Origin: an uncultured Gemmatimonadales bacterium
GTDB lineage: Bacteria; Gemmatimonadota; Gemmatimonadetes; Gemmatimonadales; Gemmatimonadaceae
Assembly: GCA_963737895.1 (NCBI GenBank)
Contig: CAVTUF010000001.1
Coordinates: forward strand, 1,289,150-1,353,149
Length of the DNA: 64,000 bases
Direction of reading: 5' to 3'
Both the position numbers and the translations under genes were made by a program. Positions within the stretch are counted from its first letter, which is position 1; every line of letters starts with the position of its first letter. The notes under the pieces are model-generated. The model was not told the DNA's origin and did no database searches. It saw only the letters and a program-made list of their open reading frames with translations. Shown piece by piece: positions 2,397-60,758 of this stretch.

Positions 2397-5300
2397 CTAC
2401 TCTTTCACGTCAACGGTGCGCACGTTGTCCTCGGGAGTCCGGTCGATCAGCTTGTTGTACGGATCGATCCCCGCTTTGACGGGGCGCTCGGACACGACGA
2501 AATCCACCGACATCTGATTGGCGGCCACGTGTACTTTGCGGACCGCCAGCGGCTTCCCCAGCTTGTTGCCTGGCTCGGGCGCGCCAAATACGCCAGCATC
2601 AATGTAATCAGCCACCGGGATCTCGGTCTGGTTGCCCAGGCTGTCCGCCCGGAGCTTCTTCGCCGAGAACGCGAGGTGCACAGCGTAGGTCCCATCGGAG
2701 CGTTTGGCCGCCGTCGCCGTATCCGCCCTGTTGTCGTACAGCGTGATGGTCTCGAACAGGTCGTGGATCACGTACTGCAGTGAGTCCGGCGTGACTGCAC
2801 GCAGGTACTGCAGCAGATCTGTCGTGACGGTGTAGGGCGGATTCTGGAATCCCTTGTCCTTCAGATACCGGTGCAGCGCTGCGTTGAGTGAATCCTCGCC
2901 AATGTAGTCGCGCAGCGCGTAGAAGGCGAGCGAGCCCTTGTTGTAGTGGATGTAGGGCTGCCCTTCCACCAGCATGAGCGGTAATTCCTTCTTTTTTTCT
3001 CCGCTCCGGCCGCTGAGATACCTATCCAGCTCATAGCGCAGGAACTTCTGGGCGTGCGACACACCGTATCGTTTTTCCATCACGGTGAGCGCCGAGTACT
3101 CCGCCAATGACTCCGTGAGCATCGCCGCGCCCTGTACGTTGGCCGGCACAATCTGATGGGCCCACCACTGATGGGCCAGCTCGTGAGCGGTCACGAAGAG
3201 CGGCCAGTCGAGATCGTCATCCCGGTCGCGGACGCGCGCGACGAACCCGATGCCTTCGGAATACGGGATCGTGTTCGGAAATGACTCCGCGAATACCTGA
3301 TATCGGGGGAACTCGATAATTCGGTACTGCCGGAACTGGTAGGGGCTGAAGTTCGTGGTGTAGTAGTCCAGTCCACGCTTCGTCGCGTCGATCATCCGAT
3401 CGACGTCGTACTCGTGTCCGGCGTGATAGTAGACCTCGATCGCGACGCCCTTGTACGCATCGTGGCGCATTACGTAGCGAGCTGACTGGATCGAGTAGAA
3501 GTTCAGGATCGGCGTGTCCATATGGTAGTAGAACACGCGCCGGCCATTTTCCGTTGTGTCGCGCTGGAGATACCCCGGGGCGATCGCGGTCTGGCCTGGC
3601 GCAGTGGACACCACGGCATCGAACGTGATCCAGTCCGCGTCCGTTGACAGTCCGTCCCGGCGCGCCACCATGTCGCCGATCGGCTTCGCCCGCGCCTTGG
3701 GACCCAGCTTGTGCTCTTTGCGCTTGTCATCATCCGACAACTCGGGGGTCTCGTCGTAGCCCAGACCCGGGAAGTAGGAGTTGTTGAGGAACGTCCCGTT
3801 GGCCACGATGTCGTTGTTCGGGTTGGCATTCGGAAAGCCAACTGGCGTGAAATGGCCGCCGAACGACAGCGTCAGTGAATCGCCCGGCGCGAGTGGGGTC
3901 GCGAGCCGGTAGAGGTAGACTCCACGCCCGCTATCAGCGAGCAGTATTCGGTTTGGTTTGCTCCACACGAGTGAATCAGCGTGAAACCCGCCCCCAGCGA
4001 ACACGCCTCCGTTGATATTCGACCCGAATCCCACAGCGGGCAGGCTGACCAGCAGGCTGTCGAGAGGCCGCGCCCGCTTGTTCACGATCCGATAGACACT
4101 CTGCACGCCGAACTCACGTCGCTCCGGCACGAGATCCGCCCGGATGCGCACGCCCACGATCCGCGGCTGCGCCAGATCCTTGAAATGCCGGTAGTCCTTC
4201 TCGTACGTGGCCTGGCGTTTTTCGATCTCCTTGGTTCCGGCGAACGCGTTCAGAACCGCGGTGTTGTAGAAGACGAAGCTGCCGCTGGCGAGCGCACCCG
4301 CTGCGGTCAAGCCACCGGCCAGCTTGGTGGCGCCGGGCTGCCAGCGGGCGGCAGCACTCTTCAACCGGGCGGGCCACCCGTCGTCGGCACCCCGTAGCCA
4401 GAACAGGTACGCCACCACGAGCAGCACCGCGGCGATCGCGCAGTTGTAGATCGTGACCCACGTCATGAACGGCGCGTAGTGCCCGAACCGGTTCATGTCG
4501 GAGTAAATGAACGTGGGCGGCTGGCCATACTGGTACAGGACACGCTCGAATCCCCAGGTACCCAGCACCGCCGTCAGGACATAGAACAGGATCATGACGA
4601 CATGGCCGACGTACTTGTTGTTGATGAGCGTGTGCACCAGCAACGCGAGCGCCGTAAGCTCGATCGTGGTCGGCCAGACCACGCCCACGAGCGCCTGCAG
4701 GTAGAGCGGAAACTCGTAGTTGTGATAGCCCTTGATTGTCTGCACGCCCACGGTCGCCAGCACTGCGACCAGCGTCAGCACACCCATCGCGCCGAGGAAT
4801 CCCAGGAACTTGCCGCCGGCAACGACGGATGTCGGGACAGGAAGTGCGTCGGTCGCGCCGTCGGCGCGTAATTGGCGCTCGCGCCATACCAGTTCGCCCG
4901 CGTAGATCGTCGTCAGCAAAATGGTGAACAGGACCAGCCCACCATTGAGAATGCCGATCATCTCCGCCGTCACGGGCCAGATCGGCGTCCCGTACTGGCG
5001 ATCCACATTCCAGGCGGCCAGACTGACGTTGACCAGGGCGATGATGGCGATCGCGAGGAAGACGGGCTCCCGGACGATCGAAACGAAATAGAACCGGCAC
5101 AGCCCCATCATCTGCTGGACACGCGCCCGCGCATCGAAATGGAGGCCGGGCGCGCGAACGCTGACGCCGCCGAAGCCGCTGGCCGCGGGACGCGGGACGG
5201 AAGCCGGCACCGCCCGCGGACGGCGCCGCAGCCAGGCAGGCAGCAGTGGCACCGCCTCGACTTCCAACCGAACCACGGCGAATGCGACGCCAAGGATGAC

Positions 5301-6053
5301 GACGGCAAGTCCGATCCAGAGGGCGCGGTTCCACAGCATTGGCCCGGTCAGCATGATGTCCCGCGTGTTCTTGTCGGCCACGGTCCAGTACCGTGTCACC
5401 AGACCGCTCGTGGAAAGTGCGAACGGATCCACAATCGCGCCAAGTAGACGCTTGTCGAGGTCGCGGAGGATGTTCTGTGAAATCGCCCAGATAGCGAAGA
5501 GTGCGACTCCCTGGACGTAGATGGACAGCAGATTGCGGGTGATGGCGCCCACGGCGAAGAACAGAGCGCTCACGAACAGAATGTTGGGAACGACGATGAT
5601 GAGGAAGGGACGCAGATAGCTCATCAGCCGGAACTGCTGCAGCCGGTCGTGATCGACCCACGGCATCCAAGTCCCCACCAGCGAGCCCAGTGGCAGAGCG
5701 AGGTAGATCAGCAGCATGACCACGCACGCACCGGCGAACCGGCCCGCCAGGTAGCCGTTTCGGGTGATACGGGTGGTGAACAGAAGCTCGTGCGACTTGA
5801 GCTGTACGTCACGGAGGATCGCCGTACCCATCAGGGCTGTCGTGATGGTCTGCCCGATCGCGCACATGACCGCCATCGTCTGCGCCAGAATGATCGGCGC
5901 GTTCTTCATCACCTGTCCCTGGTTGTCGAAGATCAGGAAGGCATCGGACGCCATCCCGAAAAACGTCAGCAGAAACATCGTCGCGAAGAACAGGTACGTG
6001 CTCGGCCGGCGCCTGTGATAGTCGAGTTCAAATCGGAAGACGGTCCAGAACAC
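2397..6053 (-). CDS. ABC-2-type permease fused to an M1-family (gluzincin) aminopeptidase domain
   Basis: 1218-aa ORF. The N-terminal half is two blocks of hydrophobic ABC-2-like helices. The C-terminal half carries the zinc signature HELAHQWW...LTESLAEY. Confidence 0.85.
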   Translation of the reverse strand: MFWTVFRFELDYHRRRPSTYLFFATMFLLTFFGMASDAFLIFDNQGQVMKNAPIILAQTMAVMCAIGQTITTALMGTAILRDVQLKSHELLFTTRITRNGYLAGRFAGACVVMLLIYLALPLGSLVGTWMPWVDHDRLQQFRLMSYLRPFLIIVVPNILFVSALFFAVGAITRNLLSIYVQGVALFAIWAISQNILRDLDKRLLGAIVDPFALSTSGLVTRYWTVADKNTRDIMLTGPMLWNRALWIGLAVVILGVAFAVVRLEVEAVPLLPAWLRRRPRAVPASVPRPAASGFGGVSVRAPGLHFDARARVQQMMGLCRFYFVSIVREPVFLAIAIIALVNVSLAAWNVDRQYGTPIWPVTAEMIGILNGGLVLFTILLTTIYAGELVWRERQLRADGATDALPVPTSVVAGGKFLGFLGAMGVLTLVAVLATVGVQTIKGYHNYEFPLYLQALVGVVWPTTIELTALALLVHTLINNKYVGHVVMILFYVLTAVLGTWGFERVLYQYGQPPTFIYSDMNRFGHYAPFMTWVTIYNCAIAAVLLVVAYLFWLRGADDGWPARLKSAAARWQPGATKLAGGLTAAGALASGSFVFYNTAVLNAFAGTKEIEKRQATYEKDYRHFKDLAQPRIVGVRIRADLVPERREFGVQSVYRIVNKRARPLDSLLVSLPAVGFGSNINGGVFAGGGFHADSLVWSKPNRILLADSGRGVYLYRLATPLAPGDSLTLSFGGHFTPVGFPNANPNNDIVANGTFLNNSYFPGLGYDETPELSDDDKRKEHKLGPKARAKPIGDMVARRDGLSTDADWITFDAVVSTAPGQTAIAPGYLQRDTTENGRRVFYYHMDTPILNFYSIQSARYVMRHDAYKGVAIEVYYHAGHEYDVDRMIDATKRGLDYYTTNFSPYQFRQYRIIEFPRYQVFAESFPNTIPYSEGIGFVARVRDRDDDLDWPLFVTAHELAHQWWAHQIVPANVQGAAMLTESLAEYSALTVMEKRYGVSHAQKFLRYELDRYLSGRSGEKKKELPLMLVEGQPYIHYNKGSLAFYALRDYIGEDSLNAALHRYLKDKGFQNPPYTVTTDLLQYLRAVTPDSLQYVIHDLFETITLYDNRADTATAAKRSDGTYAVHLAFSAKKLRADSLGNQTEIPVADYIDAGVFGAPEPGNKLGKPLAVRKVHVAANQMSVDFVVSERPVKAGIDPYNKLIDRTPEDNVRTVDVKE

Positions 6054-6126
6054 GGCGAATGCCTCGGATGACGGAAGGGGACAGACTGGCGCGGGATCGG
6101 CGGGCGAGCCGGCCCGGTGTCGCGCC

Positions 6127-7008
6127 CTAGGCGGTCACGGCCTGGGCGCCCAGGCAATGGAAATACACGTCCTCCAATCCGGCTTCGATCGGTGTGAACC
6201 CGTGGCCGGGATCGGTTTCGCTGAATACGTGCACCATCGGAGTGCCAGCGACCAGACGGGTCGAGATCACCTCGTACTGGGAAGAGATCGCCGCCAGATC
6301 CGGGCGCTGCACCGCGCGCCGCCACACGTGGCCGCGCAACTCTTCGATCACCGCCGCGGGATCGCCCGTCAGCACGACGGCGCCCTGATTGATGATCGCC
6401 ATCCGGTGGCAGAGCTCACGAACGTCATCCACGATGTGCGTTGACAGTATGACGATGACGTCCTGGCCGATCTCCCCGAGCAGGTTGAGGAACCGTCGGC
6501 GCTCGGTCGGATCGAGACCCGCCGTCGGCTCGTCGACGATCAGCAGCCTCGGGCTTCCGGCCAGCGCGATCGCAATGCCAAGGCGCTGCTTCATCCCGCC
6601 GGAGTATCCGCCGACTTTCTTGTTCCGCACCTCGTAAAGGTTCGTCTGTTGCAGCAACGCCTGCACCAGGTCGCGTCGCTCGCCTCTCACCGTCACGCCC
6701 TTCAGTTCGGCGAAGTGATCCAGCACGCTTTCCGCGGACTGGTTGGGATACAGTCCGAACTCCTGTGGCAGATACCCGAGCTGCTTCCGCAGCTCGGCCG
6801 GCTGCGCCAGCACATCGATCTCGCCGAGGTGGATCGTGCCGGAATCGGGCCGCTGGAGCGTCGCGATGGTGCGCATTAGGGTGGACTTGCCCGCCCCGTT
6901 CGGACCGAGCAGTCCGAACATCCCGGGCGCGACGCTCAACGTGACGTCCCGGAGGGCTCGCACGCCGTTGTCATAGGTCTTGGATAGCCCTTCGATCACC
7001 AGTTCCAC
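6127..7008 (-). CDS. ABC transporter ATP-binding protein
   Basis: Walker A GPNGAGKST, ABC signature SGGMKQR and Walker B LLIVDEPTAGLD. It lies directly upstream of, and co-directional with, the permease/M1 gene. Confidence 0.92.
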   Translation of the reverse strand: MELVIEGLSKTYDNGVRALRDVTLSVAPGMFGLLGPNGAGKSTLMRTIATLQRPDSGTIHLGEIDVLAQPAELRKQLGYLPQEFGLYPNQSAESVLDHFAELKGVTVRGERRDLVQALLQQTNLYEVRNKKVGGYSGGMKQRLGIAIALAGSPRLLIVDEPTAGLDPTERRRFLNLLGEIGQDVIVILSTHIVDDVRELCHRMAIINQGAVVLTGDPAAVIEELRGHVWRRAVQRPDLAAISSQYEVISTRLVAGTPMVHVFSETDPGHGFTPIEAGLEDVYFHCLGAQAVTA

Positions 7009-7278
7009 ATCTTCCCCTGGGTCCAGAGTTTGGCAGTGGCCGCCGGCCTCGCTGCTGCCCTACGCGACGCGATCACAATGCGTTTCAGCGCGCCGCCCGG
7101 ATCCGCCCCGCTGGCGATTCAGTGCCGCCCGCGCAACCCGTAATGTTCTGATCGGATGCGGCGATGCAATGGTTGCCACGCGGCATGCCCGTAGCCCTGG
7201 CGCCAGAGCACTCTGGCGAGGCCAATTGCCACCCGGCACGCCTCTCGGGGCTTGTCTAAGCGTCAGGCCATCACTGGC

Positions 7279-8095
7279 TTATGGGGCTTGATGACCGCCG
7301 TTCGGGGGTTTCTGAGCGCGACACCGCGGATCGCCGGCCTTCGAGGAGCGTGCGGTCCGCGGCTCCAACGCCGGGCCAGGCGTCAGGTCGCAGAACACAA
7401 ATCCGTCGCGCTCCACCACCGAACCAACGATGATGGGCACGGGCCGGATGAATACGGGACCGTTGAACACGAATGTGTGGAACTCGCCGTTCTCGCCGCA
7501 GGGATCGGCGCCGCCGGGCAGATCCTGCAGGAGCTTGGAATCGAACAGGCGCCCCGCGAACGACGGGCCGATCTTCGCGGGGTCCACGCACACGAGCACG
7601 GCCTCGAATCCGCGATCGATGAACTCACGCGCCAGCGCCCGGGTGTCGCGCAACCACAATGGAAAGAGCGCGCGCATGCCGAGTGCGGCGAGCTGCCGCT
7701 CGCGGTACGCACGCACGTCGGACAGAAACAGGTCGCCAAATGCGATGCGCGTCGCACCCGCCGCGCGGACCGGTGCGACTGCCGCGGCGAACGCAGCCTC
7801 GTAGCTGTCGTTGGAGGCGTGAACGGGGATGCGCGCCTCGAATGAGCGGCAGCCCGACCGCAGCCGCCTGAGCCTGGAGCAGCGCTCGCCGAACCCCGTG
7901 CATGCTGATCCGCTCGTAACCTGCCGTCACGGTGGTGATCAGCCCACACACGCGAACGTCTGCCGCAGCACGCAACGCGCCGAGCGCCAACGCGCTGTCC
8001 TTGCCCCCGCTCCAGGCGAGGAGCACCGGCTCTCTGGAGTCCCCGGGTGTCGCCGAAACGAGATCGGCGGCTGATTCTTCAGGAACTGCTTTCAT
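7279..8095 (-). pseudogene. Dph6-related / MJ0570-type ATP pyrophosphatase (adenine nucleotide alpha-hydrolase), interrupted by a 1-nt frameshift near 7840
   Basis: The N-terminal ORF has the PP-loop LLAWSGGKDS and runs to ...AAAVGLPLI. The sequence continues sensibly only in the frame of ORF 7279..7716: EARIPVHASNDSYEAAF...DVRAYRERQLAALGM...GENGEFHTFV. After 7840 the first frame turns Arg-rich. Confidence 0.75.
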
Positions 8096-9306: not shown

Positions 9307-9398
9307 GTGCCGCCGCGCACCAATTCGTCGCCGGTTGGGGCGGGTCATGATCCGCCCTCTGTGGTTGCCGTTACACCACCGCCTGTAGCCCACGCCAC

Positions 9399-10181: not shown

Positions 10182-11102
10182 CTACTCGATCCTGGCTACC
10201 CCATTCCCCGGTGCCGGGAACCGGACGAATATCTGCGGGTCGTGGCCCGGGATGATGAGTCCAGGACTCAATGCGATGCGCCGCATCCGGTCCTGCGCCT
10301 GCAGGTTCGATACTGAATCGGCCGGCGAGAACGTCGCTCCGATCGGCGCGTGCTTGGCGAGATTCTCGAACATGTACATGTTGTCGGACGCCAGCACGAC
10401 GACGCCCTTCGCGGTCCGCACCCCAGCATACTGCGATGCGTAGGTGTGCCGGCCGCCCGTGTAAACCGTAATGCCGGGTATCACTTCGCGCGCGTCGCCG
10501 TCGACGAGTTGAACGCGTCCCGCGCGATGCAGTTGCGCCAGCATCTTGGCATCCACTGTGTCGATGGCTTCGCCCAGTGGAAGGCCATTGGCACCGACGT
10601 AGTGCTCGTATTCAGCCTTCTGAATCCAGATGCGTGCTTTGGGAAACAGATCCGCCCCGTCGAGGTGATCCCAATGCACGTGCGAGATGATGATGTCGGT
10701 CACGGCACCGGGGGTCACCCCGGCTTTGGCGATCGCGTCGGACGGACGCTGATAGTCGAACGGCTTCCACGCCGCGAGAAACTGCGGACGGTAGAACCCG
10801 GCATCGAGCAGCACCGTGTGCCCGTTGTTCCCCTTGAGCACCCCGATGATGAATGCCAGGTCGGTCCGGCGCGCGGTGTCGGCGCCCTTCACGAGTTCGG
10901 CGACGGGAAACCCATGGAAACCAGCAAACCGCACCATGTAGACTTCGTACGCCGGCGCCGCTTGGGCCGATAGCAGCGATCGGCCGCCGGTCAGCGCGAG
11001 CAGCCCTGCCAGAACGAGGAGATGCCGGGCGACGAGATGCCAGGCAACGGCCCGGTATACGGCGCCAAACCTGGTGAAGCGGGCAAGACTGTGACTGGAC
11101 AC
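10182..11102 (-). CDS. MBL-fold metallo-hydrolase (lactonase-like), probably secreted
   Basis: Contains the motif IISHVHWDHLDG. The start is uncertain: GTG at 11102 has GGAG 9 nt upstream and yields a signal-like LLVLAGLLALTGG. The ORF itself is open to 11249. Confidence 0.75.
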   Translation of the reverse strand: MSSHSLARFTRFGAVYRAVAWHLVARHLLVLAGLLALTGGRSLLSAQAAPAYEVYMVRFAGFHGFPVAELVKGADTARRTDLAFIIGVLKGNNGHTVLLDAGFYRPQFLAAWKPFDYQRPSDAIAKAGVTPGAVTDIIISHVHWDHLDGADLFPKARIWIQKAEYEHYVGANGLPLGEAIDTVDAKMLAQLHRAGRVQLVDGDAREVIPGITVYTGGRHTYASQYAGVRTAKGVVVLASDNMYMFENLAKHAPIGATFSPADSVSNLQAQDRMRRIALSPGLIIPGHDPQIFVRFPAPGNGVARIE

Positions 11103-11275
11103 GACAGGACGCTCCGGAGAGGGTGGACGTCCCCGGCGATCGGACGGCCGCGGGAGATTGACCGGGTAGATTCTAGGCCGATTGGCCTGGCCCCGCCACA
11201 CGCCCTTGCTGCGTGTGACGACTGCGCGTAACCTCACCCCGGCACTCACTCCGTCCAGGCCGGGCCAATCTCCCC

Positions 11276-12847
11276 ATGACGTTCCAGCGCAAGCTGCTCC
11301 TGGGGTTCTCGCTCATGGCCCTGCCCGCACTGCTCGTCGCGGGTGAGGCGATCCGCACCAATCTGCTCGAACGGGCCGCACTGAAGGCTCTTGGCGAGGA
11401 TCTCGCACGGTCGCGCACGTACGGCGAGCTCGAAACCGCCATGTTCAATCAGACGGAAACCGTCTGGCGATACCTGACCGGGATGGATCCGACTGCCCGC
11501 CAGGAATTCGATCTCAATGGCGAGGTCATCGACTACTGGTTGCAGCGTTGGAGATCCGAGTTGCGCCCCGATGAGGCTGGACTCGCCAACGACGTCCGCG
11601 AGGTGCAGCAGCAAATCCGTCTTGCCTCTGTGCACGTGTTCGCGGTCTACGACTCCGGCCGCCACGAAGATGCGTACCGCCTCGCCCAACAGGACATCCG
11701 CGACCGGCTCCTGCCCATCCTCGACAACCTGAACCGCGACATCTACCGGCGTGCACGCGAGTCCAGCGTCCGCGGCGCCTACGCCAACCTTGCGGACATC
11801 GTCGCCGCCGAGAATCGCGCCGTAGTCGCCATTCTCATCCTGGCTCTCGCGACTGCGTTCATCGCGTCGTGGCTCATCTCGCGCAGCCTCGCGCGCCCGA
11901 TCAGCCAGCTCCGCGAAGCGATGGCCGTTGTTGGCACGGGGAGGCTCGACTATCCCATCGAGGCGCGCTCGCCGGATGAGATAGGGGACCTCGCGCGCTC
12001 GTTCGCGATCATGACCGAGCACCTGCGCGAATCCCGAGCGGGCGTGGAGCGGCTCAATGCCGAGCTCGAGGCCAAGGTCGCGCAGCTCGAGCGGACGCAG
12101 GCCCAGCTCCTGCAATCGGAACGGCTCGCGTCGATCGGCGAGATGGCCGCAGCCGTCGCCCATGGTATTCGCAATCCGCTGGCGAGCCTCCGCGCCGCCG
12201 CGCAGCTCGCGCTCCGCCAGGCGCACCTCCCCGCCCCTCGGGAACACCTCGGCGTCATTATCGGCGAGGTGGACCGCCTCGACCGGCGCGTCAGCCACCT
12301 GCTCAACTTCTCGCGACCTGCGCCGGTCCACCAGATGCGCGAAAGCGTCGCCCGGTTGGTCGAGGACCTCACGCCGCCGTTCACCGAGTTGCTGAAGGAG
12401 CGCCACATCGCACTCGACGTGCAGATCGCGCCCGGGCTTCCGGATGTCCGCATCGACCCGATGCAGGTGGAGCAGGCGCTCGTGGAAGTCGTATCCAACG
12501 CGCTCGACGCCATGCCCGGCGGCGGCAAGCTGCGCATCGCCGCCTCCGCGGCTGCTCTTGGCGGCAATCCGGGTGTCGTGATCGAGATCGCCGATACCGG
12601 TGCCGGCATCCCGGAGCACGTGCTGCCATCGGTGTTCGACCCGTTCTTCACGACGCGCCCCGAAGGCACCGGCCTCGGTTTGGCAGTGGCGAAGCGTTTC
12701 ATCGAGCAGAACGGTGGCGCGGTCGCCATCGTGAGCGCGCAAGGCCAGGGCACTACTATTCGGCTGCAGTTGCCCGTCGCGGTGGACGACAATGACGCCA
12801 GCGCGGCGCGTGCAGCCGGCAGTCCTCCACCCACGAGTAATTCCTGA
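11276..12847 (+). CDS. sensor histidine kinase (TM sensor domain, HAMP, HisKA, HATPase)
   Basis: H-box SIGEMAAAVAHGIRNPL, G-boxes IADTGAGIP and GTGLGLAVAK, and HAMP-like SRSLARPISQLREAM. Confidence 0.9.
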   Translation: MTFQRKLLLGFSLMALPALLVAGEAIRTNLLERAALKALGEDLARSRTYGELETAMFNQTETVWRYLTGMDPTARQEFDLNGEVIDYWLQRWRSELRPDEAGLANDVREVQQQIRLASVHVFAVYDSGRHEDAYRLAQQDIRDRLLPILDNLNRDIYRRARESSVRGAYANLADIVAAENRAVVAILILALATAFIASWLISRSLARPISQLREAMAVVGTGRLDYPIEARSPDEIGDLARSFAIMTEHLRESRAGVERLNAELEAKVAQLERTQAQLLQSERLASIGEMAAAVAHGIRNPLASLRAAAQLALRQAHLPAPREHLGVIIGEVDRLDRRVSHLLNFSRPAPVHQMRESVARLVEDLTPPFTELLKERHIALDVQIAPGLPDVRIDPMQVEQALVEVVSNALDAMPGGGKLRIAASAAALGGNPGVVIEIADTGAGIPEHVLPSVFDPFFTTRPEGTGLGLAVAKRFIEQNGGAVAIVSAQGQGTTIRLQLPVAVDDNDASAARAAGSPPPTSNS

Positions 12848-12857
12848 GCCCGACCGC

Positions 12858-14273
12858 ATGAGCGCAGCCACCGTATTGATCGTCGATGACGAGCGCACGC
12901 TCGCGCGGTCGATCAAGGCGTTCCTCATCGAGTCCGGCTACGAGGCCGAGGTCGCGGGAAGCGGCGAACAGGCGCTCGAACAGTTGGAGCGCGTGCGGCC
13001 GGATGTGATCTTCGCCGATGTGCGCCTGCCGGGCATGAACGGCATCGAACTTCTGCGCCGGATCCGGGAGTTCGACGCCGCCGTCCCGGTCATAATGATG
13101 ACTGCGTACGGCACGATCGAAGGCGCCGTGGAAGCGGTTAAGCTCGGCGCCTTCGACTATCTGAAGAAGCCTGTCGATCTGGACGAGCTCAAGCTGCTCA
13201 CCGACCGGGCACGCGAGTCGTCGCGACTCAAGCAGGAGTTGTCCTACTACAGGCGCCGCGACACACCCGAAGTCCGCTTCGCCGAGATCGCCGGCCAGTC
13301 GCCGGCTATGCAGGCCGTGCTCGATCGCGCCAGACAGATCGCCGCGCTGGATGATGTGCCGCCAGTCCTCATCACCGGGGAAACCGGAACCGGCAAGGGT
13401 CTGCTCGCGCGCAGCATTCACGCCGCGGGACCACGCTCCGCGAAGCCATTCATCGAGGTGAACTGCACGGCGCTGCCCGGAACGCTGATGGAGGCTGAGC
13501 TGTTCGGCCACGAACGCGGCGCCTTCACCGACGCGAAGGAATCGAAGATCGGACTCTTCGAAGCCGCCGAAGGCGGCTACCTGTTTCTCGACGAGGTCGG
13601 CGACATCGAGCTGTCGCTCCAGGGGAAATTGTTGCGCGCCATCGAAGACCGGATGGTCCGGCGCGTGGGAGGCATCCGCGACCGCAAGATCGACACGCGG
13701 ATCTTCGCCGCCACGAATCGCGATCTCGAGCGCGATGCACAGCGAGGATCGTTTCGAAAGGACCTCTACTTCCGGCTCGCGGTCATCCTGCTCCGGCTAC
13801 CGCCGCTTCGCGAGCGGGGCGATGATGTGCTCCTCCTCGCCGAATTGTTCCTGCGCCAGTTCGCCGCGAAGTATGGCAAGGACGTGCACGAGCTCAGCCC
13901 CCGCGCACGCGCGCTGTTGCTGTCGTATCCGTGGCCCGGCAACGTGCGCGAGCTGAGTCACGTCATCGAACGCGCCGTGCTGTGGAGCCGCGGTGCGATG
14001 CTCGATCCCGGCCACCTGTCGCTCACCGAGCCTGCGGCCTTCGAGCCACCTGGTGCCTCCGGCGGCGACTCCTATCCCGATCATATCGGGGGGACCTCGA
14101 ACCCGGGTCCCGGAATCCCGCCAGGCGGAGGCGACCTGCCGCAGTGGGAGAAAACAGTCATCGAACAGGCGCTGCGCGAAGCAGGCGGCAATCAGACCAA
14201 GGCCGCCCAACGGCTCGGCATCAGCCGTGACACGCTCCGCTATCGGCTGAAGAAGTTCGGGATCGCAGGATAG
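12858..14273 (+). CDS. sigma-54-dependent response regulator (NtrC family)
   Basis: ATG at 12858 lies 8 nt after the kinase stop. It has a receiver domain (LIVDDE...DVRLPGMNG), an AAA+ domain (GETGTGKG, ELFGHERGAFTDA) and a C-terminal Fis-type HTH (AAQRLGISRDTLRYRLKKFG). Confidence 0.92.
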   Translation: MSAATVLIVDDERTLARSIKAFLIESGYEAEVAGSGEQALEQLERVRPDVIFADVRLPGMNGIELLRRIREFDAAVPVIMMTAYGTIEGAVEAVKLGAFDYLKKPVDLDELKLLTDRARESSRLKQELSYYRRRDTPEVRFAEIAGQSPAMQAVLDRARQIAALDDVPPVLITGETGTGKGLLARSIHAAGPRSAKPFIEVNCTALPGTLMEAELFGHERGAFTDAKESKIGLFEAAEGGYLFLDEVGDIELSLQGKLLRAIEDRMVRRVGGIRDRKIDTRIFAATNRDLERDAQRGSFRKDLYFRLAVILLRLPPLRERGDDVLLLAELFLRQFAAKYGKDVHELSPRARALLLSYPWPGNVRELSHVIERAVLWSRGAMLDPGHLSLTEPAAFEPPGASGGDSYPDHIGGTSNPGPGIPPGGGDLPQWEKTVIEQALREAGGNQTKAAQRLGISRDTLRYRLKKFGIAG

Positions 14274-14284
14274 ACCCAAGGGGG

Positions 14285-14321
14285 TGGGCTATTTCACCCA
14301 CTCCTTGGGTAAATGACCCAA
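14285..14321 (+). promoter_or_regulatory. candidate enhancer (UAS): two adjacent inverted repeats TGGG-N6/7-ACCCA
   Basis: TGGGctatttcACCCA (14285-14300) and TTGGGTaaatgACCCAA (14305-14321) lie about 100-135 nt upstream of the -24/-12 promoter. Confidence 0.45.
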
Positions 14322-14418
14322 TGAATGCGCACTTTGAATTCACGCATGGGATCGGTCATGAGCGCATAACGCATGGACTGGCCGGAGGTTACGCGCATAC
14401 AGGCGTTTGCGGTGGCGC

Positions 14419-14434
14419 TGGCACGACGGGTGCC
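14419..14434 (+). promoter_or_regulatory. sigma-54 (-24/-12) promoter
   Basis: TGGCACgacggGTGC, with GG at 14420-14421 and GC at 14432-14433 (GG-N10-GC spacing). It sits 88 nt upstream of the pqqA-like ATG and directly downstream of a sigma-54 activator gene. Confidence 0.7.
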
Positions 14435-14521
14435 TATAGGCAAGGCGCAGCCGGTTGAACGTTGTGAGTGTCCATCGGCTTTTCGACCCACCCGGGTCCG
14501 TCCTTTTCTGCGGAGCGCCTC

Positions 14522-14593
14522 ATGTGGACCAAGCCTGAATTCGAAGTCGTAGAAGTCACGATGGAAGTGACTGCCTACGTCGCCCGGCGCTAA
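14522..14593 (+). CDS. pqqA: pyrroloquinoline quinone precursor peptide PqqA-like (23 aa)
   Basis: ATG 14522 to TAA 14591-14593 encodes MWTKPEFEVVEVTMEVTAYVARR. GGAG lies 6 nt upstream. Length, the N-terminal MW.KP and the Glu15/Tyr19 pair (EVT.Y) match the PqqA family. Confidence 0.8.
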   Translation: MWTKPEFEVVEVTMEVTAYVARR

Positions 14594-14618
14594 GAGCCGG
14601 ACGGATCGGTAAGACAGA

Positions 14619-14648
14619 GGGGGCCCCGAAACGGGCCCCCTGTTCTTT
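14619..14648. terminator. rho-independent terminator (possibly bidirectional)
   Basis: GGGGGCCC-cgaaac-GGGCCCCC followed by TGTTCTTT. It lies between pqqA and the convergent gene that ends at 14678. Confidence 0.75.
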
Positions 14649-14677
14649 CCCGGCGGAGCCTGTGTAGCTCGGGCGGC

Positions 14678-16330
14678 TCACGTGTTGTTCGTGAGTACCC
14701 CCACCAGCCACGTGCGAGCTGCGGCCACCTCGCCATCGCCGATCGAATGACCGCCCAGCTCCCAATGGAGCGTCACCGATGCGCCGCAGCGCCGCAGCAG
14801 CTCGGCGAGACGTTCGGTTTCCGCTGGCGGCGCGATCGGATCGGCCCGCCCGGCTCCAATGAACACCGGCGTCCCCGCGAGATCGGGTAAGGGGTCCGGC
14901 TCGAACGGCACCATTGGACTGAGCAGAACCGCGGCCCGCAGCACGCCCGGCCGGCGCAGCAGGAGACTCGCGGCAATGTTGGCGCCGTTGGAGAATCCGG
15001 CAGCCACGATTCCGTCGCGATCCAGGCCATACGTTGCCGCCGCGGCCGCGACGAACTCGGCCAGCTCGGTCGTGCGCCGCGCGAGGTCCTCCTGATCGAA
15101 CACACCTTCCGCGATCCGGCGGAAGAATCTCGGCATCCCGCGCTCCAGCACCTGTCCGCGGGGACTCAGGAGCCCGGCACCGAGCACGAGCGCGCGGCCC
15201 AATGGGATGAGGTCCTCTTCGTTGCCGCCGGTACCGTGGAGCAGGAGCAGGGTGGTACCGCCCGCATACTCGGAGCCGGGAGCCGGCGGCACGTAACGGT
15301 GCACGAAACCGAGTGCGTCGCCACTCACATCTTCGGGCCCGCCGGTCGCATTGCTGAGGGCAATGTCGGCGCCCGGCACCGGGAGATGGATCGGCGGCAG
15401 CACGGCCTCGATCTGCGACCGGTATGACTCGTATTGGGCCGGTAGCATCAACCGCTCGCCGAGGTGCTCCATGGGCTCGTCGATCGCGAAGCCCGGCCCG
15501 TCGGTGGCGATCTCGAACAACACGCCGCCAGGTTCGTGAAAGTACACCGAATGGAAATAGGTCCGGTCGATGACTGGAGTCGGCGTGGGGCCCGCCGCGG
15601 CCACTTGCTCGCGTAGCGAGAGTTGCGCCGCGTCATCCGCTGCGCGGAACGCCACGTGATGCACGATCCCGGCGCCGCCCGCCCCGCGCGGGAATCCGCC
15701 GACGGCCCGCACGTTGACCAGCGTCCCTGCGCCGCCATCGCCGGCCGCATACCGCCGCGTTGTGTGCTCCTCACTCACCGGCCGGAACCCCAATGTGTCG
15801 ACGAGGAGGCGCTCCGTCGGGTCATGCTTCTCCTCCCAGAGCGTGACGCCGTGGAATCCCCGGATCGCCTGATCGGCGCCGATGCCCGGCGAACCGGCCC
15901 ACGCGGGACGCACCTCCGCGCTCGCGTGCGCGACGATCTCGAGCATCATGCCGTCGTGGTCCCGGAACGCGATCACCTGCTCCGCGGCCGTACCGGTCCC
16001 GCGCTTGGAGGGTCCCTCGAATGCGACGCTATGCCTCACCAGCCGGGCCACCCAGAATCCGAGCGCCGGCGGCAGCACGGCGAACGACGTCACGGCGACC
16101 TGCCCGGTGCTCTGGCGCCCCCGATGCGCGCCGGGCCACGGGAAGAAGGTCATCACGCTGCCCGGCGTCCCCGTCTCGTCGGCAAAGTAGAAATGGTAGG
16201 TTTGCGGATCGTCGAAGTTGACGGTGCGCTTGACGAAGCGCAGCCCGAGCAGCCCCACATAGAAATCCAGATTCCGCTGGGGGTCGGCGGCGATCGCCGT
16301 GACGTGATGAATGCCGAGTACGCCTGTCAT
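14678..16330 (-). CDS. fusion of a two-domain VOC/glyoxalase-type ring-cleaving dioxygenase with a phospholipase/carboxylesterase-type alpha/beta hydrolase
   Basis: ATG at 16330. The N-terminus GIHHVTAIAADPQRNLDFYVGLLGLRFVKRTVNFDD... is MhqO/YfiE-like. The C-terminus TLLLLHGTGGNEEDL...AAGFSNGANIAASLLL is MhqD-like. Confidence 0.8.
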   Translation of the reverse strand: MTGVLGIHHVTAIAADPQRNLDFYVGLLGLRFVKRTVNFDDPQTYHFYFADETGTPGSVMTFFPWPGAHRGRQSTGQVAVTSFAVLPPALGFWVARLVRHSVAFEGPSKRGTGTAAEQVIAFRDHDGMMLEIVAHASAEVRPAWAGSPGIGADQAIRGFHGVTLWEEKHDPTERLLVDTLGFRPVSEEHTTRRYAAGDGGAGTLVNVRAVGGFPRGAGGAGIVHHVAFRAADDAAQLSLREQVAAAGPTPTPVIDRTYFHSVYFHEPGGVLFEIATDGPGFAIDEPMEHLGERLMLPAQYESYRSQIEAVLPPIHLPVPGADIALSNATGGPEDVSGDALGFVHRYVPPAPGSEYAGGTTLLLLHGTGGNEEDLIPLGRALVLGAGLLSPRGQVLERGMPRFFRRIAEGVFDQEDLARRTTELAEFVAAAAATYGLDRDGIVAAGFSNGANIAASLLLRRPGVLRAAVLLSPMVPFEPDPLPDLAGTPVFIGAGRADPIAPPAETERLAELLRRCGASVTLHWELGGHSIGDGEVAAARTWLVGVLTNNT

Positions 16331-27763: not shown

Positions 27764-29899
27764 TTATTTCTGCGCCGTCGCCACCCCTCCAGGGATGTAC
27801 TTGGCGTACCAATCGAGGTACCGCCGCAGCCGGTCCACCTTGAAGCTGGGGCGCGTGAGCCCGTGGTATTGGCCCGGATAAATCACGAGTTCCGTGGGCA
27901 CGTTGAGGACACGCAGTGCCTGGTACATCTGTTCGCCGCCGATCACCGGCACATTGAAGTCCTTGTCCCCACCGAGAAACAGGGTGGGCGTGGCAATGTG
28001 CGTGGCGTGAAAGAAGGGGTAGGAGAGTTTGATCCACAGATCGGGGTGCTCCCACGGCTGGCCCAGCTCTGCGACGTATTGCTGGATGTACTCATCGACG
28101 CCATACATCGAGAGTTGCAGCGCACTCCCCGCCCCGCTCGTCGCGGCCTTGAACCGGGGGTCGGTCGCGATGGAGTAGTCGGTCAGTATCCCGCCGTAGC
28201 TCCACCCGCCAATTCCGAGTTTGCCGGGGTCGGCGATCCCCGTCGCCACGACGTGGTCCATGGCGCCGAGCAGGTCGACGACTTCCTTGTGTCCCCAGTC
28301 GGCGAGAATCGCCCGTTGGTACGCGGCACCCCTGCCCGAGCTCCCCCGATAGTTCGGCGACACGACAACGTATCCGTTGGCCGCGAATAGCTGGCGCTCG
28401 AAACTGAAGTCGTGTTCGTCCTGGCCGTTCGGGCCGCCGTGAATCCGCAGGAGCGTGGGGTAACGGTGCCCGGACGCCGCGCCAGCGGGCTTGATCAGAA
28501 TGCCATGGACATCGGTTCCGTCTTTGCTCCGCGCCGCGAAGTCCTCGGTCGTGCCAAGCTGCACGCCGGCGAGCCACACGTCGTTGCAATGCGTGAGCCG
28601 CCGCACGTCGCCATGGTCGATCACACACACTTCGGGCGGCGTGCTGTCGGTCGCAATCAGACCGGTGAGCGCTCCATCGTGGGCCATGGAGATGCTGGAG
28701 ATCACGAATGAACCAGTCAGCATCCGCGTCACGGCGCCGCTCGCGACATCGACACGTGCCGGGTATACGGACCGGTCATCCTCCACGAGCACCGTGATAC
28801 TGCGCCCGTCTGCCGACCACTGCGGCTGGGATACCGCGCGATCCAGCGCTGCCGTGAGTACTCGTGGCTCGCCCCCCAATGCGCTCACGACCGCCAGTTG
28901 CAATTCGTCGTACGCGAACAGCCGCGGGTCGGCATTTCCCCGCACATAGGCGATCGAGCTGCCATCGGGGCTCCACGCCAGCCGCCCCGCCTCGGGCGGG
29001 TTGTCGGGACCGGGCCAAGTCGTGAGCTGCATGGCCGCGGCGCCGGGCTGGGTGTCGACGGCAAACACGTCCCAGTTGTTCGCGCGATCCACATCCACCG
29101 GAGTCCGCTTGCTCACAAATGCGATCCGCCGCCCGTCGGGTGACCATGCCGGCTGCTCTTCGTCGAACGCGCCCGCCGTAAGGATCCGTGTGGCGTGCGT
29201 GGCCACGTCGAGCAGGTAGAGATGGTCGCGAGATTTGCCGAGGTAGCCGGTGATGTCCTCTTTGAACTGATAGCGGTCAATGACGATCGGCTTCGGTTTC
29301 TTGTGCTCGCCATCCGCTTTCCGCGCGGCGGAATCCCGGTGGGCCGAATCGGCCACCGCTGAATCGGGATCGTCTGCCACCACCAGCACAATGTGGGTGC
29401 CGTCGGGCGACCACACGTAGTCGTTGACGTCACCGGTGAAGCTGGTGATCCGGATCCCTTCGCCGCCCTGGCGGCTCATCAACCACAACTGCAATGTCTC
29501 GTTCGCGTTGTCGCGCGCGGACAGGAAACTGATGTAGCGGCCATCCGGGCTCCAGCGGGGACGCGATTCGTTCGAGGTGTCCGTGGTGAGCTGAATCGTG
29601 TTGGTGCCGTCGGAGCTGGTCATCCAGATCTGGGTGTGACCCTTGTCGCGCGCTGAGTCCGGCGTGCTCACGGTATACGCGACCCACTGGCCATCCGGTG
29701 ACCGCTCCGGATCGCGCACATCTTCGAGGCGGTAGAGATCCTCGGCACGCAGTGGCCGGCGCGCGTTCGTACTCGCAGTCGCAGCCGGGGACGGCGCGGA
29801 CCCCGACGTCTGTGCCATGGCAGGCGCGATCGCGAAGCAGCCGGCTGCGATGACGACAGCGATGACGACAGCGATGAACTGTCGCATGAGGATTGGCAT
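27764..29899 (-). CDS. S9-family serine peptidase with an N-terminal TolB-like beta-propeller
   Basis: ATG at 29899 with a signal peptide. Repeated SPDG... propeller blades, the nucleophile elbow GIGGWSYGG, and a C-terminal GDKDFNVP...H. Confidence 0.9.
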   Translation of the reverse strand: MPILMRQFIAVVIAVVIAAGCFAIAPAMAQTSGSAPSPAATASTNARRPLRAEDLYRLEDVRDPERSPDGQWVAYTVSTPDSARDKGHTQIWMTSSDGTNTIQLTTDTSNESRPRWSPDGRYISFLSARDNANETLQLWLMSRQGGEGIRITSFTGDVNDYVWSPDGTHIVLVVADDPDSAVADSAHRDSAARKADGEHKKPKPIVIDRYQFKEDITGYLGKSRDHLYLLDVATHATRILTAGAFDEEQPAWSPDGRRIAFVSKRTPVDVDRANNWDVFAVDTQPGAAAMQLTTWPGPDNPPEAGRLAWSPDGSSIAYVRGNADPRLFAYDELQLAVVSALGGEPRVLTAALDRAVSQPQWSADGRSITVLVEDDRSVYPARVDVASGAVTRMLTGSFVISSISMAHDGALTGLIATDSTPPEVCVIDHGDVRRLTHCNDVWLAGVQLGTTEDFAARSKDGTDVHGILIKPAGAASGHRYPTLLRIHGGPNGQDEHDFSFERQLFAANGYVVVSPNYRGSSGRGAAYQRAILADWGHKEVVDLLGAMDHVVATGIADPGKLGIGGWSYGGILTDYSIATDPRFKAATSGAGSALQLSMYGVDEYIQQYVAELGQPWEHPDLWIKLSYPFFHATHIATPTLFLGGDKDFNVPVIGGEQMYQALRVLNVPTELVIYPGQYHGLTRPSFKVDRLRRYLDWYAKYIPGGVATAQK

Positions 29900-29930
29900 C
29901 GATCTGATGGTGTGGAAGTGAGTGATCCGA

Positions 29931-30818
29931 TCAGAGACGCGTGATCGCAGGACGCGTGTGGCGCCACATGGCACCCACGAACGACCCGCGAGTGACAATC
30001 TGCGCCGCGGACCGTTCGAGCACACCCCAGCCGCCGGCCACTGGCGGCGCCGCGGACCACGGGTAGACTGGCGTGCGCGGCACCGCGAGCGCATCCCCGC
30101 GCCACCGCGAGAGTACGGCAAATCCGAGCCTGTAGCCTGCCGCACGCGCCAGCTCTCGCTCGCGAGACCCGGCCGCGCCATACGGATAGGCGACCGCCAG
30201 GACTGGCGCACCGAGTACCATCTCCAACATCGTGCGCGACCGCGTGAGTTCCGACGCCGCCTGATCCGCCTCGAGCCACGACAGCCGCGGGTGCGTCGCG
30301 GTATGCGAGAATGAACTCGATCCCGCGTCCATGCCATCGCGCAATGTCGCGCCACGCCAATGCGCGAACCGCCGGCCGCCGATCGCCACGTCCCATCGGT
30401 TCAGCCGGCCCGCGTACTCCGTGATCACGGCGCACGCCGCCGTGAAACCGCCATCCGCCAGCGCGGGAAATGCGTAGTCCCTGAGTCCGCGGTAGGCATC
30501 ATCGAACGTGATCGCGAACTCACGTGGTCCCGCTGGCCGCGTGCCCGCCAGTGTTGCCGCCAGCTCGTTCAGCGTCAGCGTTCGCCAGCCGCCAGCAGCC
30601 AGCGACTCGATCTGCCTGGCGAAGCGCCGCGGGGAGAGCCGCGTCACGCCGATCTCGCTCCTGCAATCGACCTTGTGATAGACCAGGACGGGCGGGATGA
30701 GCCGCCCGGCAGCATCGCGCGCAAAAAAACCGGTCTTGTTCGGTGCCACTTGGTCAGCAATCACTATCGTCCCCCAACCCACGGATCGCACGGTATAATT
30801 GGACCTCCGAGACGGCAT
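29931..30818 (-). CDS. polysaccharide deacetylase (NodB-homology) family protein
   Basis: VLVYHKV...ITFDDAYRG...SHTATHPRL. ATG at 30818 is preferred over the TTG at 30884. It lies 31 nt upstream of the S9 peptidase on the same strand. Confidence 0.8.
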   Translation of the reverse strand: MPSRRSNYTVRSVGWGTIVIADQVAPNKTGFFARDAAGRLIPPVLVYHKVDCRSEIGVTRLSPRRFARQIESLAAGGWRTLTLNELAATLAGTRPAGPREFAITFDDAYRGLRDYAFPALADGGFTAACAVITEYAGRLNRWDVAIGGRRFAHWRGATLRDGMDAGSSSFSHTATHPRLSWLEADQAASELTRSRTMLEMVLGAPVLAVAYPYGAAGSRERELARAAGYRLGFAVLSRWRGDALAVPRTPVYPWSAAPPVAGGWGVLERSAAQIVTRGSFVGAMWRHTRPAITRL

Positions 30819-35137: not shown

Positions 35138-35145
35138 GCCGATCC

Positions 35146-36945: not shown

Positions 36946-37952
36946 GGCGCCCTCTCCTCGGCCACGACGGCCCGGGCGCCGAGTGCGGCGATCCGTGAGA
37001 CGGCATCGCGGCGCACGATGGCCCAGGCTCGCGTCTCGATCAACGGAACGATCGCCGCCTGCCGATCGCCGGACTGCATCGTAAGGCGCGGCGCGCTCGC
37101 CGGAATCGCACCTGTCTCGCCGCACGATTGTAGCGTCGGCAATGGAATGGCGACGACGTATGCTTCGCCGCTGGCCCCCATCACGGCCCGCGGAAGATCG
37201 CGGGCCGGTAGTCCCGTCGCGTACATCTCGGCACCCATTCGGCCAAGTGCCGGCGCAACGCCACCAAGCAGGCTGCTGCCGGTCGACGCGAGGACGGCCA
37301 GCCTCTCGGCCAGAAACCGCGCAACGCTGTCCTCCTGGTCGTAAAGGATGCGCGCTGCACTCGGCAATCGCGCGGAAGCCGGGCCGGGGGTCACCACCAC
37401 GCTCGGGTGAGCAGCATCTCCGCCACAAGCGCTGTCCGGCAGCGCAATCCCGGCACCGAACGCCCGAGCGTCGGCGTGGACCACGTCCGAAGCGAGTGCC
37501 GCCCCCAAGGGATTTGCGGCTGAGTCTGGCCGTCCGGGCTGGCGACGCACGACCAGCACGTAGACGCGGTCCCACGGGAGCGGAACCGATACCAGACCGG
37601 GGTGGCCGGCCGCATAGGCTACCACCGATCGGTCCCGCGTCACCAGGATGTCTACGCCCTGGTCGAGCGCATCCCGCGCCCCGCGATCGCTAACCCGCCG
37701 CAGGACGACTGTATCCTGCCCAGCCGACGGAGGGGTACGGCCAGGCCGAGCCGGCGGCCTGGGATTCAGGCATTCCGGCGGAGCCACGGCGGCTCCGATC
37801 TGGCTCAGCAGACGCGGAACGGCGGACGCCGGGTCGCGGACGCCCAAGGAGTCAGGCGCCCCGGCGATCGTGACGGCGATCGGCCGGCTGGGCCGTTTGC
37901 CGGAGCACACAGCACCGCGAGGGGAGCCGGATCCGGCGATGGGCCGGCACAT
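36942..37952 (-). CDS. periplasmic solute-binding-protein-like protein (first gene of the kinase/regulator operon)
   Basis: Weak resemblance to ABC substrate-binding proteins (...ARDALDQGVDILVTRDRSVVAYAAG...VPLPWDRVYVLVV). The start is uncertain: ATG at 37952 or TTG at 37988. Confidence 0.5.
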   Translation of the reverse strand: MCRPIAGSGSPRGAVCSGKRPSRPIAVTIAGAPDSLGVRDPASAVPRLLSQIGAAVAPPECLNPRPPARPGRTPPSAGQDTVVLRRVSDRGARDALDQGVDILVTRDRSVVAYAAGHPGLVSVPLPWDRVYVLVVRRQPGRPDSAANPLGAALASDVVHADARAFGAGIALPDSACGGDAAHPSVVVTPGPASARLPSAARILYDQEDSVARFLAERLAVLASTGSSLLGGVAPALGRMGAEMYATGLPARDLPRAVMGASGEAYVVAIPLPTLQSCGETGAIPASAPRLTMQSGDRQAAIVPLIETRAWAIVRRDAVSRIAALGARAVVAEERAP

Positions 37953-45978: not shown

Positions 45979-45979
45979 G

Positions 45980-59360: not shown

Positions 59361-59362
59361 GA

Positions 59363-60754: not shown

Positions 60755-60758
60755 GGCG

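Follow-up and report, generated by a model that had tools for sequence, protein, structure and literature searches.

A stand-alone second pqqA gene beside a kinase-regulator pair in a Gemmatimonadales genome with a distant PQQ operon

We have analyzed a very short gene, here named pqqA1, within a 64-kb stretch of DNA (contig CAVTUF010000001.1; the whole stretch of 64,000 nucleotides is called the window) from an uncultured Gemmatimonadales bacterium. It encodes a precursor peptide of pyrroloquinoline quinone (PQQ) and stands apart from the genes for the PQQ enzymes, which are found in a distant operon of the same genome together with a further copy of the precursor gene, named pqqA2. It is preceded by genes for a histidine kinase and a response regulator, and by a sigma-54-type promoter element. 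We consider it probable that pqqA1 is a functional, signal-inducible second precursor gene that feeds the distant PQQ enzymes.

The precursor gene and the distant operon

The gene and the signals closest to it are the following, in window coordinates.

14512-14515, forward strand: Shine-Dalgarno sequence GGAG, 6 nt 5′ of the pqqA1 ATG; GGAG or GGAGG is equally placed in related loci
14522-14593, forward strand: pqqA1, stand-alone PQQ precursor peptide gene, ATG to TAA, 23 codons, encoding MWTKPEFEVVEVTMEVTAYVARR
14618-14651, forward strand: intrinsic terminator with a 9-bp GC stem (AGGGGGCCC/GGGCCCCCT), a 6-nt loop and a T-rich tail

An initial annotation of this DNA had described a 23-codon open reading frame (ORF) with GGAG 6 nt upstream, and with the length and layout of PqqA, including Glu15 and Tyr19. 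Sequence and translation agree with this, and both residues are present. Scoring of the peptide with a PqqA hidden Markov model (HMM) had been proposed as a check; the peptide reached 30.8 bits with the TIGR02107 profile (cut-off 20, E = 1.8e-7), and it also passed PF08042 with 25.6 bits against a cut-off of 21.1. The core of PqqA1 is E15-V-T-A-Y19, and the spacing of Glu and Tyr is the same in 36/36 related peptides. The size of 23 amino acids fits that of a short precursor peptide (about 20-40 amino acids, with Glu and Tyr three residues apart). Judged by its sequence, the ORF is a genuine additional pqqA and an ordinary member of the PqqA family. Its location is not the usual one, being neither beside pqqB nor inside a pqq operon.

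The monocistronic layout described earlier is borne out by the 9-bp GC stem and T-rich tail that follow the gene, the hairpin itself (14618-14641) beginning 24 nt 3′ of the stop codon. A GC hairpin and a run of T residues were found 3′ of the pqqA stop codon in all related loci examined. The next gene on the 3′ side of pqqA1 is a convergent glyoxalase/hydrolase gene. As the initial annotation had remarked, pqqA1 is absent from the ORF track of the window. The ENA and JGI gene callers also predicted nothing between the regulator and the gene that follows, and as a point of annotation the gene was missed by all three public gene calls for the region.

The statement that no pqqBCDE genes occur in these 64 kb also held. 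The window has a G+C content of 65.7%; likely genes were picked by third-position G+C, and a Pfam scan of 40 large ORFs found no PqqB, PqqC, PqqD or PqqE, no other radical-SAM (S-adenosylmethionine) enzyme and no PQQ-repeat dehydrogenase. A tblastn search of the window with PqqB, PqqC, PqqD and PqqE from a related genome gave no match at E < 1e-8. A divergent metallo-beta-lactamase (10182-11249) was considered as PqqB and rejected; it gave no tblastn match, reached no NCBIfam cut-off and is weakly lactonase-like.

The suggestion that pqqA1 could supply substrate, from a remote site, to a pqq operon elsewhere is supported both by the PqqA HMM scores and by the discovery of such an operon on the same chromosome. 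The M1 peptidase encoded in the window (2397-6053) is an exact match to ENA ERZ25039543 contig_2257 at 3270-6926, and this contig of 3,288,445 nt carries pqqA2 (encoding MWQKPEFEVVEVTMEVTAYVARR) followed by pqqB, pqqC, pqqD and pqqE at about 249-253 kb (locus L171). The proposed search of the genome for pqqB/C/D/E has thus found all four on the peptidase's contig, each above its NCBIfam equivalog cut-off: PqqB 348.5 bits (cut-off 245), PqqC 288.9 (240), PqqD 79.6 (46) and PqqE 539.4 (381); PqqA2 scored 30.2 (20). Both precursor genes are on the same strand, about 258 kb apart, with pqqA2 some 243 kb to the left of window position 1. The two precursor peptides differ at one residue (T3Q; 22/23 identical), and the genes at 11 nucleotides. 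The PQQ pathway is thus complete in this genome, which has two pqqA genes.

Co-location was deduced from the ENA contigs, from equal reported lengths of the NCBI contigs (3,472,295 nt), and from the window, which bridges both ENA contigs. The regulator encoded in the window is an exact match to a protein (P0180) of ENA ERZ25039543 contig_20127 that is assigned to an NCBI contig of 3,472,295 nt. A PqqE search with the sequence from locus L132 as query led to a cluster member (P0427) likewise reported on an NCBI contig of this length. Coordinate arithmetic places the junction of the two ENA contigs, where contig_2257 starts and contig_20127 ends, near window position 9322-9325; the window derives from a version, the NCBI contig of 3,472,295 nt, that has them joined. 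The summed length of the two ENA contigs exceeds 3,472,295 nt, and hence the ENA and NCBI assemblies differ elsewhere. An exact look-up of the ABC protein encoded at 6127-7008 of the window matched no record.

The same arrangement is seen in a relative with an 89%-identical regulator (P0188), on JGI contig Ga0209167_10000002 of 618,541 nt. The neighborhood is fully syntenic with the window (locus L168), with kinase, regulator and pqqA1 at about 414.7 kb and with promoter and hairpin kept. The same contig carries pqqA (again encoding MWQKPEFEVVEVTMEVTAYVARR) with pqqB, pqqC, pqqD and pqqE at about 146 kb (L132), about 269 kb from L168. The 64-kb neighborhood taken alone would misleadingly suggest an orphan precursor without a pathway. 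The status of pqqA1 as a second copy had been overlooked in the initial annotation, as had its conserved kinase and regulator neighbors and the sigma-54 type of its promoter.

The kinase-regulator pair and the upstream elements across the Gemmatimonadales

The following features lie upstream of pqqA1.

11276-12847, forward strand: membrane histidine kinase, presumed sensor; transmembrane segment, periplasmic helical region of ~150 amino acids, transmembrane segment, HAMP, HisKA and HATPase_c (Pfam)
12858-14273, forward strand: NtrC-family response regulator, presumed activator of pqqA1; Response_reg, Sigma54_activat, AAA_lid_14 and HTH_8 (Pfam)
14285-14321, no strand assigned: tandem dyad sites, putative upstream activating sequence (UAS); TGGGCTATTTCACCCA (14285-14300) and TTGGGTAAATGACCCAA (14305-14321)
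14419-14433, forward strand: sigma-54-type element TGGCACGACGGGTGC, with GG at -24 and GC at -12; predicted transcription start near 14445
14485-14498, forward strand: small GC hairpin of the 5′ leader, GACCCACCCGGGTC then CGTCCTTTTC, terminator-like with a T-rich run, just upstream of the Shine-Dalgarno sequence

The Sigma54_activat domain of the regulator was found with E = 3.8e-62. It has the Walker A sequence GETGTGKG and, at residue 221, the loop GAFTDA, one residue off the GAFTGA consensus. The best NCBIfam equivalog scores were 236.8 bits for the kinase (AtoS, cut-off 646) and 446.6 bits for the regulator (AtoC, cut-off 714). Both proteins miss every equivalog cut-off, and this places them outside any named system. 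A PDB sequence search with the sensor region of the kinase gave nothing meaningful.

Orthologues of the kinase with 55-90% identity occur upstream of pqq genes in Gemmatimonadales loci, and orthologues of the regulator with 70-94% identity were always found beside pqq genes or an orphan pqqA. A scan with the regulator, taking one genome per species, gave about 42 Gemmatimonadales contigs at 70-82% identity. A pqqA-like ORF lay downstream on the same strand in 36 of these (36 among the 80 genome loci fetched); for this the pqqA pattern had been loosened to allow an extra residue (M-S/T/K/R-W), as in most relatives, the strict M/V/L-W form having matched none. The kinase-regulator pair stands directly upstream of pqq genes in about 40 genome loci and about 20 metagenome loci, and pqqA comes before pqqB, before a lone pqqE, or in the gap between pqqD and pqqE. 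PqqB, PqqC, PqqD, PqqE, kinase and regulator were mapped onto all loci, which were sorted into types A to D.

Type A: kinase, regulator, pqqA, pqqB, pqqC, pqqD, pqqE; about 26 loci
Type B: kinase, regulator, pqqB, pqqC, pqqD, pqqA, pqqE; L003, L005, L010, L011, L014, L035 and many metagenome contigs (L082-L102)
Type C: kinase, regulator, pqqA, pqqE; L039, whose PqqE is intact (376 amino acids)
Type D: kinase, regulator, pqqA only; the window, L032 and L038

The peptide of the window is the type B/C peptide minus one residue after Met1, that of L039 having also V9I. In a neighbor-joining tree of the regulators the type D loci are sister to the type B clade.

The initial annotation had also given pqqA1 its own promoter. 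A promoter-like element is indeed present; it is of the sigma-54 -24/-12 type, and a scan for sigma-70-type promoters upstream of pqqA1 found none. Canonical sigma-54 promoters carry GG at -24 and GC at -12, with TGGCAC-N5-TTGC-like spacing, and the element of the window matches this consensus well. The pattern GGCA[CT]-N5-xTGC was found 57-135 nt 5′ of the pqqA start in every locus examined, more than 40 in all, and its distance to pqqA is kept whichever gene precedes, be it the regulator gene, pqqD or pqqB. With the stricter form GGCACG-N4-STGC there is about one match in each fetched locus, nearly always at the conserved site upstream of pqqA.

The conservation extends to the dyads. In a Python dyad scan, TGGGTG-N4-CACCCA-like dyads, often doubled, were found just past the stop codon of the regulator gene in nearly all loci in which pqqA follows the regulator, 110-140 nt upstream of the -24/-12 element; those of the window lie 100-135 nt upstream of the -24 element. 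The dyad block is also conserved in L168. If the dyads act as a UAS, for which a distance of about 80-150 nt from the promoter is expected, dyads and -24/-12 element together would have the classical geometry for an enhancer-binding protein at a sigma-54 promoter.

The leader hairpin at 14485-14498 is also conserved in L168, and could be an attenuator or a stabilizing structure. A search of Rfam with 14200-14750 gave no match, and folding of the predicted transcript gave z = -2.0, mostly due to the terminator. A structured RNA is thus unsupported.

The control region of the operon copy is different. The GGCAC-N5-TGC element is absent upstream of pqqA2 and its orthologues (the Q3-type copies), and pqqA2 thus seems to lie behind a promoter of another type than sigma-54. 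A pair TTGCGY-N17-GATAMT, seen by eye, is conserved upstream of the operon pqqA copies; it is a candidate only, because a simple sigma-70 scan upstream of pqqA2 gave no score. Two loci of different type have genes for an extracytoplasmic function (ECF) sigma factor and a zf-HC2 anti-sigma factor, divergent beside an operon of the pqqA2 kind (L171, 6597-7531; L163, 7537-8404), which makes an ECF sigma factor a possible regulator of the enzyme operon.

Both kinds of precursor gene occur together in one operon on metagenome contig L126 (1813-1881 and 3186-3254). Its Q3-type pqqA stands before pqqB, behind a TTGCG...GATAAT pair and without the sigma-54 motif; its T3-type pqqA stands between pqqB and pqqC, behind GGCACG-N4-STGC. 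In their arrangement, the sigma-54 promoter, the T3-type pqqA and the hairpin seem to behave as one unit in varying positions.

A number of other features of these loci were observed. The window contains a second pair on the reverse strand (33764-37575), an 809-amino acid histidine kinase and a 461-amino acid REC-Sigma54_activat protein (33764-35149). The latter has no Pfam HTH_8 domain, and a pattern scan found no GAFTGA-like loop in it. The presence of a second sigma-54 activator suggests that sigma-54 is used by this genome. Also on the reverse strand of the window are two gene pairs with a SusC/SusD-like layout (44638-49033 and 59363-63842), each consisting of a CarboxypepD_reg-Plug TonB-dependent receptor and, after it, a protein of about 450-490 amino acids that gave no Pfam hit; several PD40/S9 peptidases (27764-30355, 53331-55304 and 57189-59531) and a multicopper oxidase (50976-52769) accompany them. 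In L039, from a long-read metagenome-assembled genome (MAG), the regulator gene (6001-7402) is split by a frameshift near 6960. Split regulator matches also occur in the MFD long-read MAGs L007, L012, L020, L034 and L038, and these are probably assembly indels rather than pseudogenes.

A further locus type (L103, L108, L109, L111, L114, L115, L118 and L163) has pqqA, pqqB, pqqC and pqqD with two M16 peptidase-like (PqqF/G-like) genes and a thiamine pyrophosphate enzyme gene. It has neither pqqE nor the kinase-regulator pair, and TTGCGT-N17-TATAGT lies upstream. These loci look complementary to the kinase-regulator-pqqA-pqqE locus of L039. A link between the genome of the window and this pqqA-pqqBCD-M16 peptidase type (L103-L118, L163) was tested by a PqqC search and by listing the clusters, and was rejected; the members come from other Gemmatimonadaceae MAGs (GCA_036273715.1), and none from the assembly of the window. 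Lastly, L133, L135, L136, L137 and L138 have pqqB, pqqC, pqqD and pqqE, with no pqqA detected by the pattern used; their pqqA may be more divergent or sited elsewhere.

Selection on the peptide, a proposed mechanism and its rivals

Comparison of the coding sequences indicates strong purifying selection on the PqqA1 peptide. Between the window and the stand-alone genes of L032/L038, the regulators of which are about 75% identical to that of the window, 11/23 codons differ, with 11 synonymous and 0 non-synonymous changes. Compared with the operon copies of type B there are 4-9 synonymous and 0-1 non-synonymous codon differences.

We infer the following mechanism. The histidine kinase would sense a periplasmic signal and phosphorylate the NtrC-type activator, which would then bind the tandem TGGGTG-N4-CACCCA-like dyads at 14285-14321 and open the sigma-54 promoter at 14419-14433. 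The resulting transcript of ~200 nt would end at the hairpin at 14618-14651. The abundant 23-amino acid PqqA1 would be taken up by PqqD/PqqE from the distant operon, with formation of the Glu15-Tyr19 cross-link, and conversion to PQQ would be finished by a protease, PqqB and PqqC; no gene for the protease was identified in this genome. One PqqA peptide is consumed for each PQQ made. Because the consumption is stoichiometric, a separately inducible pqqA copy should raise the level of substrate, and pqqA1 would provide a signal-dependent boost over the basal supply from the pqqA2 of the operon. The ancestral order in the Gemmatimonadales may have been kinase, regulator, sigma-54 promoter, pqqA and pqqBCDE. 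The window would then represent the regulatory 'head' left in place, the enzyme genes having relocated with a duplicate pqqA.

A number of points weigh against this mechanism. Promoter type, transcription start and dyad binding by the regulator are all read from sequence. Within the window by itself, the dyad pattern is no more frequent than chance would give (1 match, 1.34 expected), and the support for the dyads comes from the conservation of their position across loci rather than from their number in the window. In most type B loci, a strict scan found no dyads upstream of pqqA. An extra TGGGTG-N4-CACCCA dyad is present in one subgroup downstream of the sigma-54 element, inside the predicted leader, ~50-77 nt 5′ of pqqA (L002, L004, L007, L009, L016-L020, L025, L026, L029, L033, L034 and L041). 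Its placement is at odds with a simple UAS model, and it might serve as an autoregulatory operator or form an RNA hairpin. Given the presence of pqqA2 in the operon, the cell may be able to do without pqqA1. Finally, the proposed dosage boost is weakened by studies of Pseudomonas putida and Methylorubrum extorquens, in which the level of pqqA expression reportedly had little effect on PQQ output (cited in PMC10112286).

The initial annotation had itself raised an alternative, in which the peptide resembles PqqA but has another fate. It, or its mRNA, could be a regulator or decoy that titrates PqqD/PqqE, the product could be a small RNA, or the peptide could be the substrate of another maturase. 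This has found no positive support and we consider it unlikely, while keeping it as a rival. What speaks for it is the coding sequence of pqqA1, which is identical to that of L168 (9669-9740) at 72/72 nt in a setting where the intergenic DNA is 83% identical. The kinase and regulator genes of the two loci have synonymous changes in 23-31% of conserved codons, and at this rate the probability of zero changes in 23 codons is about 7.5e-4; pqqA2 has 3 synonymous changes over the same comparison of genomes. The identity hints at constraint beyond the amino acids, and may reflect extra constraint at the nucleotide level or chance. However, the 11 synonymous codon differences from L032 show that the nucleotide sequence is not generally frozen. 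In addition, the single residue at which PqqA1 and PqqA2 differ is outside the E-x-x-x-Y core, and many complete operons of relatives were found to have no PqqA other than this same T3-type peptide. The Pfam scans of the window revealed no other radical-SAM enzyme, nor a maturase for ribosomally synthesized and post-translationally modified peptides (RiPPs), and the Rfam and folding results above do not favor a function as RNA.

Another possibility is that pqqA1 is a true substrate gene outside the control of the neighboring two-component system, being served by another promoter or by read-through from the regulator gene. The frequency of the motifs would allow this, as TGGCAC-N6-TGC has 2 matches in the 64-kb window (one of them at 14419-14433) where 0.94 is expected, the count of dyads is likewise near chance, and the promoter conventions of the Gemmatimonadota are poorly known. 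Yet the motif is held at a conserved distance from pqqA in more than 40 loci irrespective of the upstream gene, it is absent from the Q3-type operon copies, and the kinase-regulator pair co-localizes with it throughout the order. We therefore regard independence from the two-component system as distinctly unlikely.

Might pqqA1 be an evolutionary relic, left behind after the loss of the enzyme genes from the locus and idle now that the operon uses pqqA2? The locus types can be read as a series of stepwise loss, from kinase-regulator-pqqBCD-pqqA-pqqE to kinase-regulator-pqqA-pqqE (L039) and on to kinase-regulator-pqqA (window, L032 and L038), and pqqA2 could suffice alone. But the peptide is intact, and the synonymous-only differences between stand-alone lineages are a strong argument against a decaying relic. 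Kinase and regulator are full length, and promoter, dyads, Shine-Dalgarno sequence and terminator have all been kept relative to L168 despite the lower identity of the intergenic DNA. A relic is consequently very unlikely. The weakest alternative, a chance ORF of only 23 codons in a region of ~66% G+C with many spurious ORFs, has a negligible probability and is already refuted by the two curated HMMs, by synonymous-dominated conservation across loci in dozens of genomes, and by the Shine-Dalgarno sequence, promoter element and terminator of the gene.

Relation to known systems, and significance

The reading of pqqA1 as an inducible second precursor gene can be compared with what is known of PQQ biosynthesis in other bacteria. 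Canonical pqqABCDE(F) operons occur in Klebsiella pneumoniae, Methylorubrum extorquens and Pseudomonas, with PqqA peptides of the families TIGR02107 and PF08042. PqqA1 resembles canonical PqqA in its 23 amino acids, its N-terminal W-x-K-P and its Glu-x-x-x-Tyr core, and in the presence of PqqB, PqqC, PqqD and PqqE in the genome. The hairpin 3′ of the gene has its counterpart in relatives, in which it stands between pqqA and the pqq gene that comes next. Unlike a canonical pqqA, the gene is far removed from those of the enzymes, the operon of which holds a separate pqqA; it directly follows a kinase-regulator pair, and lies behind a sigma-54-type element rather than a housekeeping-type promoter.

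Multiple precursor genes have been described in methylotrophs. The Methylophilaceae have 3-12 copies of pqqA with a single pqqBCDEFG (PMC4109929), and in M. extorquens AM1 one pqqA is 'not required' (Toyama and Lidstrom, 1998, cited in PMC10112286). The genome of the window shares with these the possession of more than one pqqA per genome with one set of enzymes, and of copies away from the operon. It differs in belonging to the Gemmatimonadota, in having only two copies, and in the dedicated, order-wide link to a sigma-54 two-component system. Our literature search found no description of such a regulator link for the pqqA copies of methylotrophs.

The regulator resembles those of NtrB/NtrC, AtoS/AtoC, ZraS/ZraR and CbrA/CbrB in having REC, AAA+ with a GAFTGA-type loop and HTH_8, with a HAMP-HisKA-HATPase kinase as partner, and the position of the window dyads about 100-135 nt upstream of the -24/-12 element, if they are a UAS, would likewise be that of NtrC-family systems. 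It is set apart from the named systems by its GAFTDA loop, and by a presumed target that is a peptide gene of 72 nt. CbrB binds its UAS together with RpoN, and the influence of CbrAB on the pqq genes of Pseudomonas aeruginosa is mostly indirect, pqqA changing 11-fold compared with 2.5-4-fold for pqqB-E (PMC3480352). The stronger response of pqqA is consistent with attenuation at the hairpin that follows it. In Acinetobacter baumannii, loss of the two-component system AmsSR changes the level of pqqA transcript 31.8-fold, and AmsS is a hybrid kinase of 14 transmembrane segments with a global metabolic regulon (PMC10112286). AmsSR is thus similar in being a two-component system tied to pqqA, whereas the pair of the window is physically linked to pqq genes throughout the order.

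A literature search for pqqA together with sigma-54 or RpoN found no such regulation described; its coverage was incomplete, which makes this weak evidence of novelty. The search likewise found no description of pqq regulation in the Gemmatimonadota. Dedicated sigma-54 two-component control of pqqA appears not to have been described before. What is new here is the regulatory architecture, in which a kinase and sigma-54 activator pair is linked to pqq genes across the order and in this lineage has kept only the second pqqA.

A broader proposal can be put forward tentatively. The kinase-regulator-sigma-54-pqqA cassette is possibly a dedicated pathway that sets PQQ output through precursor supply, with TGGGTG-N4-CACCCA as operator and with promoter, pqqA and hairpin as a semi-independent module. 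This module would stand alone, as in the window, or lie before pqqB, in the pqqB-pqqC or pqqD-pqqE gap, or before a lone pqqE. The nucleotide conservation of the stand-alone copy might indicate an added role at the level of RNA. If the proposal is true, this would be the first sigma-54-dependent, and the first precursor-centered, regulatory circuit described for PQQ biosynthesis.

PQQ is a cofactor of periplasmic dehydrogenases in many soil bacteria. To our knowledge, little is understood of how its amount is controlled, and what purpose multiple pqqA copies serve has never been settled. The finding does not overturn the known PQQ pathway. It provides a concrete and testable circuit in an abundant and little-studied soil phylum, in which a sensor kinase and a sigma-54 activator would act through a candidate operator on a tiny target gene.

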